A stretch of 64,000 nucleotides of DNA from a virus: the IMG/VR virus record IMGVR_UViG_3300046171_000314, positions 83,879-147,878 of that record. One strand, written 5' to 3'. The notes below the pieces were generated by a model that saw only the letters and a program-made list of their open reading frames with translations, was not told where the DNA came from and did no database searches. A program made the translations under genes and the position numbers. This document shows, piece by piece, positions 55,201 through 55,483 of this stretch. Each line of letters opens with the position of its first letter. The first letter of the stretch is position 1.

Positions 55201-55308
55201 ATTTCTTTGGTGGGTTTGTTGGAGGCTTTTTGACAAACACCCTTTTCTTTTTCTATTGGTTTTGTACTTAATTGTGGAGTATTTCAGAGGAAAAAAGAAG
55301 TGATAGTT

Positions 55309-55434
55309 TGTACCTCAAAGTGTAGAAACTGCACTTTTTCGTGTAAATTTTGCACCGAAGCGTGTAATTATTGCACTTTTTGGTGTAAAAACTGCACTTC
55401 TTTGTGCGAATTTTGCACTTTTTCGTGTAGTAAA
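55309..55434. repeat. Six tandem 21-bp units, TGYAC-N6-GTGYR-N5
   Basis: Units start at 55309, 55330, 55351, 55372, 55393 and 55414; a degenerate copy lies at 55263. Confidence 0.92.
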
Positions 55435-55483
55435 GGTTTTCGGTATTTATTGAATAATGACAGACACTTGATTGGAGATTTGT

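Follow-up and report, generated by a model that had tools for sequence, protein, structure and literature searches.

Introduction

Iteron origins of replication (R6K, P1, F, lambda ori) are built of tandem, asymmetric repeats of 19-22 bp, about two helical turns each; they are curved, and are accompanied by a second, control array. Tandem repeats of about 20 bp are also the known form of type II centromeres (R1 parC, pSK41), and phased, curved sites with a spacing of two turns recall the regions upstream of stable-RNA promoters. To our knowledge, almost nothing has been established on the cis-acting sites (origins, packaging, anchoring) of very large uncultured phages.

In the Bacillus phage SPP1, the two origins, oriL and oriR, consist of direct repeats together with a stretch that is AT-rich, and both are bound by gp38 (PMC6316719). 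The oriR origin is found in a segment of three moron genes, bracketed by transcription signals, which interrupts a conserved late gene order, and fork stalling at the gp38-bound oriR has been proposed (PMC6316719). This stalling is in turn proposed to switch the replication mode (PMC6316719, PMC3485210). Volactin, the actin-family protein encoded near the locus studied here, is presented as a cell-shape protein in PMC10869688.

The present locus holds one of a pair of strongly curved, putative protein-binding arrays, of a known general kind, in a little-known phage group. As in SPP1, two distant, AT-rich blocks of direct repeats are found per genome, one of them in a moron segment which has transcription signals on its borders and breaks the conserved order of the late genes. 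The two cases differ in that SPP1 has one of its blocks within the initiator gene, and a defined AT-rich unwinding element, whereas no initiator is adjacent here; moreover our genome is about ten times larger, and a replication role for its arrays would come from analogy. With R6K, P1, F and lambda ori the locus shares tandem asymmetric repeats at about two turns, intrinsic curvature and a second array elsewhere, but not a Rep-type neighbour gene, recognisable DnaA boxes or a skew signal.

Structure of the array

The stretch of DNA analysed, called the window below, is the final 64 kb of a single virus contig of 147,878 bp. A first-pass annotation had reported six palindromic sites of 21 bp at 55263-55446, in what it took for the largest non-coding gap. 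The six-unit array is confirmed. When the window was scanned for TGYAC-N6-GTGYR, as had been suggested, six matches were obtained, at 55309, 55330, 55351, 55372, 55393 and 55414, and none elsewhere; the mean in the shuffled window was 0.44, and six was reached in 0 of 100 shuffles. TRF delimited a tandem repeat with a period of 21 bp over 55330-55429 (score 95). The extent, in return, had to be corrected. Array A1 proper is shorter (Table 1): the TGTAC at 55263 is isolated, out of phase, 46 bp upstream of the array and within a small ORF, and the former end coordinate, 55446, takes in the promoter-like motif TTCGGTAT. Read in the alternative register, A1 is a series of GTGTA-N5-TGYAC 15-mers.

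Units were compared across three arrays, namely A1, a second copy in the same contig (A2) and the array of the closest lineage (L003), both described below. The period is exactly 21 bp, without a single indel, in all 18 units. Positions 1-7 of their consensus read T-G-Y-A-C-Y-T, and positions 12-16 G-T-G-T-A; the spacers are variable, being A/T-rich only, so the earlier statement that half-sites are conserved while spacers vary stands. That the sites are palindromic is true only approximately: symmetry holds at 4 of 5 positions in this genome, and at 3 of 5 in the relatives. The two conserved blocks always differ from each other (TGYAC versus TACAC on the opposite strand), and the unit is therefore asymmetric and no true palindrome. 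A degenerate leading unit (unit 0), which has kept the GTGNN half-site only, precedes the six units in 3 of 3 arrays.

Outside the arrays, 9 single sites with at most one mismatch were counted, versus about 11 in shuffles; dispersed single sites are thus not beyond chance, which argues against an ordinary regulon. Avoidance of TGCA or GTAC is not strong in this genome, and a comparison with the phage record collection gave no DNA match.

Flanks of A1

The features around A1 are collected in Table 1, together with the other arrays. The array is non-coding. Not all of the 416 bp of the gap are, however: the T-rich tract remarked upstream of the array turned out to be a hydrophobic ORF of 46 aa conserved in the closest relative, which brings the truly non-coding stretch down to about 180 bp. 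L003 has its counterpart, a 49-aa ORF (E 2e-4), in the equivalent position, and a weak match to DUF7649 was obtained. The strong terminator that had been reported upstream is present as a terminator-like hairpin following the ParB-like gene, whose loop contains the ATG of the 46-aa ORF. An equivalent hairpin is found at the same place in L003, and in that lineage the small ORF, its start-codon hairpin and the late-type motif upstream are all kept (7620-7797).

Table 1. Positions of the arrays and of the features discussed in the text. Positions are those of the window; "genome" marks positions in the whole contig, and the two G003 rows refer to that relative.
Feature	Position	Strand	Remarks
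160-aa protein gene (ParB-like)	54585..55067	+	27-aa N-terminal tag, then ParB/Srx-fold domain; no HTH
Motif before small ORF	55133..55149	+	same motif in L003; putative late promoter-like
Terminator-like hairpin of ParB-like gene	55149..55179	+	12 pairs and T-rich tail
46-aa hydrophobic ORF	55163..55303	+	ends 5 bp before array; 42% identity over 31 aa to L003 ORF
Unit 0 (degenerate leading unit, GTGNN half-site only)	55288..55308	+	A1, A2 and L003 aligned in register
Array A1	55309..55434	+	six 21-bp TGYAC-N6-GTGTA-N5 units; 6 matches vs 0.44 expected
TTCGGTAT promoter-like motif	55439..55446	+	38 nt before ATG of 86-aa gene
86-aa gene	55484..55744	+	downstream of A1; conserved in relatives without arrays
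Volactin-family actin gene	58590..59594	+	Pfam PF25216, E 5e-70
Array A2	genome 24875-25000 (L001 9875-10000)	opposite to A1 (inverted)	whole-contig scan
284-aa protein gene	genome 54731-55585 (L273 2731-3585)	minus	G003 homologue L220 8435-9271
G003 array A	159720-159865 (L220 7700-7870)		variable region syntenic with A2 region
Second G003 array	10036-10195 (L005)		accessory islet of late module, just after volactin and 395-aa gene

On the downstream side, the promoter-like motif begins 4 bp past the last unit, in agreement with the first-pass annotation. The same TTCGGTAT motif, with a T-rich lead, is placed 20-50 nt before many starts in the contig. In L003, the region upstream of the 86-aa gene differs from that of this genome.

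The gene preceding the gap had been called ParB/Srx-like, and its fold bears this out. The model of the 160-aa protein reached a pLDDT of 84.6, and Noc, ParB-N and sulfiredoxin made up all of its top Foldseek matches, the best having an E of about 1.5e-3; when PDB sequences were searched with a profile, Noc came first, with an E of 0.9. The GERR motif of ParB is replaced, and the 27-aa N-terminal tag is common to the 163-aa neighbour. The actin gene, which had been placed about 3.2 kb away, belongs to the volactin family and starts 3.16 kb downstream of the array, with five genes in between. Among the neighbours of both arrays, Pfam and PHROGs detected no initiator gene (Rep or organiser) adjoining or overlapping the repeats, no helicase-loader and no other replication gene.

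A second array in the same contig

Like A1, A2 is composed of six units and a leading half unit. It lies 114 kb from A1, is preceded by a tRNA-Arg(tct) gene with its terminator and followed by a 235-aa gene that has a promoter-like motif, and is antisense to its neighbours. The reverse complement of A2 aligns unit by unit with A1, and the similarity goes on for about 50 nt into one flank and about 20 nt into the other; since the alignment is in register, flanks included, the two arrays are paralogous modules. On the + strand, the same promoter-like motif of 10 nt comes after each of them, with an ATG 36-38 nt further on. One array is located in a moron islet of the late module, and the other in an early variable region.

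Relatives were collected through the 489-aa protein encoded in the neighbourhood of A1. They are phage contigs from IMG/VR; the complete ones measure 230-376 kb, and CheckV estimates for the closest lineages imply about 440-520 kb. By these figures, the contig represents about one third of a very large phage genome, and more arrays may exist in the remainder.

Conservation in relatives

The closest lineage has four members (L003, L004, L070 and L077), which are identical across the array region and whose 489-aa protein is 79% identical to that of this genome. Six units and the half unit are found there in the corresponding position, following the ParB-like gene and the small hydrophobic ORF. 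In this lineage the first block is TGTAC or CGTAC and the spacers differ from those of A1; half-sites and copy number are kept, and the array is hence conserved at this distance. Directly after it, an AIPR-family (abortive-infection-type) gene absent here has been inserted on the opposite strand (L003 7994-9169, minus strand), so that the L003 array lies between convergent genes; no promoter motif was found alongside in its flanks. Further out among the relatives, the 298-aa and 89-aa genes lie directly next to each other. The segment that carries both tagged proteins as well as the small ORF and the array is thus accessory DNA inserted into the late module.

The relative G003, a contig of 289 kb, has a 489-aa homologue with 57% identity. 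Two arrays were revealed in it by TRF and a k-mer cluster scan; they are made of CTGCAA with T or A tracts, in mixed orientation and spaced by about 20, 31 and 41 bp. CTGCAA seems to alternate with another short motif, which is AAATCCGT-like. The flanks of G003 array A match positions 19.6 and 30.2 kb of the genome studied here. The late-module arrays of the two genomes are at different positions. By sequence comparison, then, the array is conserved in a narrow lineage, and arrays that appear analogous are present in G003. No TGCA array at 21-bp spacing was detected in the more distant G006 to G014, nor any array in the relatives carrying a TROVE gene. Matches to the motif in IMG/VR outside the close lineage were rejected as coding repeats, and among the matches listed in a metagenome scan, two contigs were identical to L003, the rest being uniform tandem repeats or weak, repeat-only hits.

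Some minor observations were made on these relatives. An intergenic region after the homologue of the 395-aa gene (L007 11690-11900) has four AGACGTGAACC-like copies at irregular spacing. The volactin homologue at L006 14280-16388 is 702 aa long, with an intein-like insert (Cys at its start, His-Asn at its end), and volactin matches come in two pieces in L007, L016, L026 and L034. Finally, an apparent gap of 2.6 kb at L015 18212-20795 is coding-like with many in-frame TAG, and this relative may read TAG as a residue.

Curvature and composition

Curvature was computed with a dinucleotide wedge model over 126-bp windows; this is a rough model. In the 148-kb contig no such window was more curved than A1, whose end-to-end/contour ratio was 0.70 against a mean of 0.956, and A2 ranked in the top 0.3%. 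The G003 arrays were the two most curved windows of the 289-kb contig (0.52 and 0.58). The four arrays all form AT-rich islands and rank with the lowest 0.03-1.6% of windows: arrays and flanks fall in the lowest 1-1.6% here, and down to 0.03% in G003. Beyond this general AT-richness, no distinct unwinding element was recognised in this genome. Because the motif differs between A1/A2 and the G003 arrays, what is conserved is the curvature together with the two-turn phasing. In each of two diverged genomes, this signature, extreme predicted curvature and a motif every two helical turns, singles out just two loci of the contig, and it makes such sites easy to find in other huge-phage assemblies.

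Possible functions of the arrays

A cooperative protein-binding array on one helical face, as first proposed, fits the strict 21-bp period, the conserved blocks and the extreme predicted curvature. Copies of a sequence-specific protein probably sit next to each other along one helical face of the array and wrap the DNA. A1 has six asymmetric iterons of 21 bp in helical phase and a leading half unit, and is predicted to be intrinsically curved; it is one of two paralogous copies, a pair that would work like oriL and oriR of SPP1. On this model one block would start replication, and the other, in the late-gene moron segment, may stall forks and switch the replication mode. We tentatively favour the reading of A1 as one of a pair of iteron-like platforms resembling the SPP1 origins, the part they would play in replication being argued from the comparison with SPP1. 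Iteron origins have at least three direct repeats of 17-22 bp in helical phase, and here six repeats and a half unit follow each other at 21 bp. Of the functions first listed, replication iterons are the best remaining option, yet an unproven one: no initiator is adjacent, the cumulative GC skew, a check suggested for an origin or terminus, has no inflection at A1 or A2, and the position of the late-module array is not kept between this genome and G003, as that of an origin might be. It is on account of these three points that we hold the replication reading no higher. If the arrays were origins or fork barriers, they would offer a first handle on the replication of such genomes.

The function favoured by the first-pass annotation was another one, a parC-like anchor by which volactin filaments and an adaptor would move or position the phage DNA. 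Tandem repeats of about 20 bp match the type II centromere form, one array lies 1.8-3.2 kb from volactin, at the edge of its conserved block, in all three array-bearing lineages, and the presumed adaptor, a 193-aa partner of volactin, has a conserved C-terminal tail. The N-domain of this partner was, however, modelled confidently as a small beta barrel with no fold match at E < 0.05, and neither an RHH or HTH nor any other DNA-binding fold was matched. R1 parC and pSK41 likewise have short tandem repeats, which there wrap around the ParR adaptor, and an actin-like gene in the neighbourhood, but our array is separated by five genes from volactin rather than placed at the actin-adaptor promoter, no ribbon-helix-helix adaptor was found, the arrays are two, 114-150 kb apart, and the actin is kept by relatives without arrays. 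Indeed, the co-occurrence of array and actin, which had been put forward as a check, breaks down in at least 10 relatives that have volactin and no array around the neighbouring 489-aa gene (up to 10 kb on each side). Nor does a ParABS system account for the locus, as an HTH-ParB and a ParA near a palindrome were not found: the 160-aa protein has the ParB/Srx N-domain fold only, this domain is absent from G003, which has arrays, and 12 homologous loci in other lineages have none. The described role of volactin in cell shape also goes against a centromere, which we consider very unlikely. Operators for the promoter at 55439 had been envisaged as well. More generally, a phage factor or a Fis-type nucleoid protein of the host might bind the phased sites, bend the DNA and tune the flanking promoters, in favour of which stands the motif that follows both arrays. 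All 17 of the 17 junction 15-mers of A1, A2 and L003 fit the degenerate Fis consensus, which we take to be GNNYRNNWNNYRNNC, a low-information consensus, and A1 and A2 are its densest clusters in the contig. Phased, curved sites about 2-3 turns apart just upstream of a promoter are indeed a trait of Fis upstream activating regions; six contiguous sites at a strict 21 bp would nevertheless be unusual for them, and the array has extra invariant positions that Fis does not need. The L003 array, moreover, lies between convergent genes with no promoter motif alongside, the 86-aa gene has a homologue in G003 that comes with the promoter motif and no array, other promoters of this class lack such sites, and the G003 arrays do not fit the Fis consensus. 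Measured from the site centre, the motif is 28 nt away in A1 and 34 nt away in A2, in opposite orientation, and this difference of 6 bp puts the two arrays on opposite helical faces relative to the motif. We regard promoter control as somewhat unlikely. The lack of an HTH in the ParB-like protein and its absence from G003, with volactin occurring without an array in at least 10 relatives, weigh against both the actin centromere and the 55439 operator, and the array is independent of the ParB-like gene, of volactin and of the adjacent promoter.

Two further functions were weighed. The wrapped complex might serve packaging, recombination enhancement or the synapsis of inverted copies, or mark an islet boundary that promotes cassette exchange, since A1 and A2 are mutually inverted and all arrays lie in accessory (moron) islets that differ between close relatives, as illustrated by the AIPR gene beside the L003 array. 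This is unlikely, given that no terminase or recombinase gene is adjacent to the arrays, that no rearrangement between this genome and G003 has its breakpoints at arrays, and that an equal count of six units in each copy is atypical of transposon ends. Alternatively, the repeats might act as RNA or be translated. For the top strand of A1 a better fold was obtained (-51.1 kcal/mol, z -6.3) than for shuffles or for the bottom strand, an effect of the asymmetric inverted halves pairing through G-U; the array would form the 3' end of the small-ORF transcript, here and in L003; and A1 can be read throughout in a Cys-rich frame, in which CxxxCxx comes six times. The three arrays, though, give three different folds with an unfavourable covariation term (+1.34), the best score against Rfam 15 was 24 bits for a threshold of 50, with no family near threshold, and A2 is antisense to its neighbours. 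A conserved RNA was rejected on these grounds, and so was a coding repeat, as no strand or frame is open in A1, A2 and L003 together (frame 1 meets a stop in L003, and frame 2 in A2). The lack of a common reading frame or RNA fold is in line with an array acting as DNA, and the strict period of 21 nt without indels fits the phasing of a DNA helix and not an RNA, so that we hold an RNA or translated function to be highly improbable.

Candidate binding proteins

As a short and testable piece of DNA, the array lends itself to pulling down its binder. To the replication platforms that we tentatively favour, a binder could be sought among the 53 ORFs of the contig that have homologues in G003 and are absent from three array-less relatives (two complete, one about 90%). 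Among the members of this set scanned with Pfam, a 284-aa protein stands out. Its homologue in G003 (39% identity, E 7e-43) is encoded about 570 bp from G003 array A, and IMG/VR scans for the family returned G003 only; the protein is confined to the subclade that has arrays. It gave a weak, sub-threshold Mrr_N winged-helix signal; the nearest ESM Atlas cluster (score 0.93) is viral, with Mrr_N in 20% of its members. An invariant Cys-X10-Cys-X2-Cys-X5-Cys block (C-X10-C-X2-CPLA-X2-C) and a C-terminal zinc ribbon complete the protein. The Cys block is reminiscent of WhiB-type iron-sulfur motifs, and the gene is preceded here by an ECF-like promoter motif. This winged-helix/Cys4/zinc-ribbon protein may be the array binder, but it is a lead only, with a phylogenetic profile common to 53 ORFs and domain matches below threshold. 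A Fis-like protein of the host is another candidate lead. Going further, a lineage-specific winged-helix/Cys4 protein, possibly an iron-sulfur one, might build a new type of nucleoprotein complex on the most curved segments of the genome, and so organise replication or tether the genome to volactin filaments, with a motif that turns over fast while curvature and phasing are kept; we judge this quite unlikely.

Two other proteins were discarded as binders. The tandem sigma-4 protein (window 12769-13374) is encoded by a core gene, present in array-less relatives too, and is therefore no array-specific factor; the ParB-like 160-aa protein was dropped for its lack of HTH, its absence from G003 and its homologous loci without arrays.

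Lastly, a block on the minus strand (genome 62436-67093) is common only to this genome and G003. It is a subclade-specific transcription module, whose products are a metallophosphatase, a protein of 199 aa that gave a weak HTH signal, a fusion of ABC-ATPase and GNAT, and a complete sigma-70-type factor.
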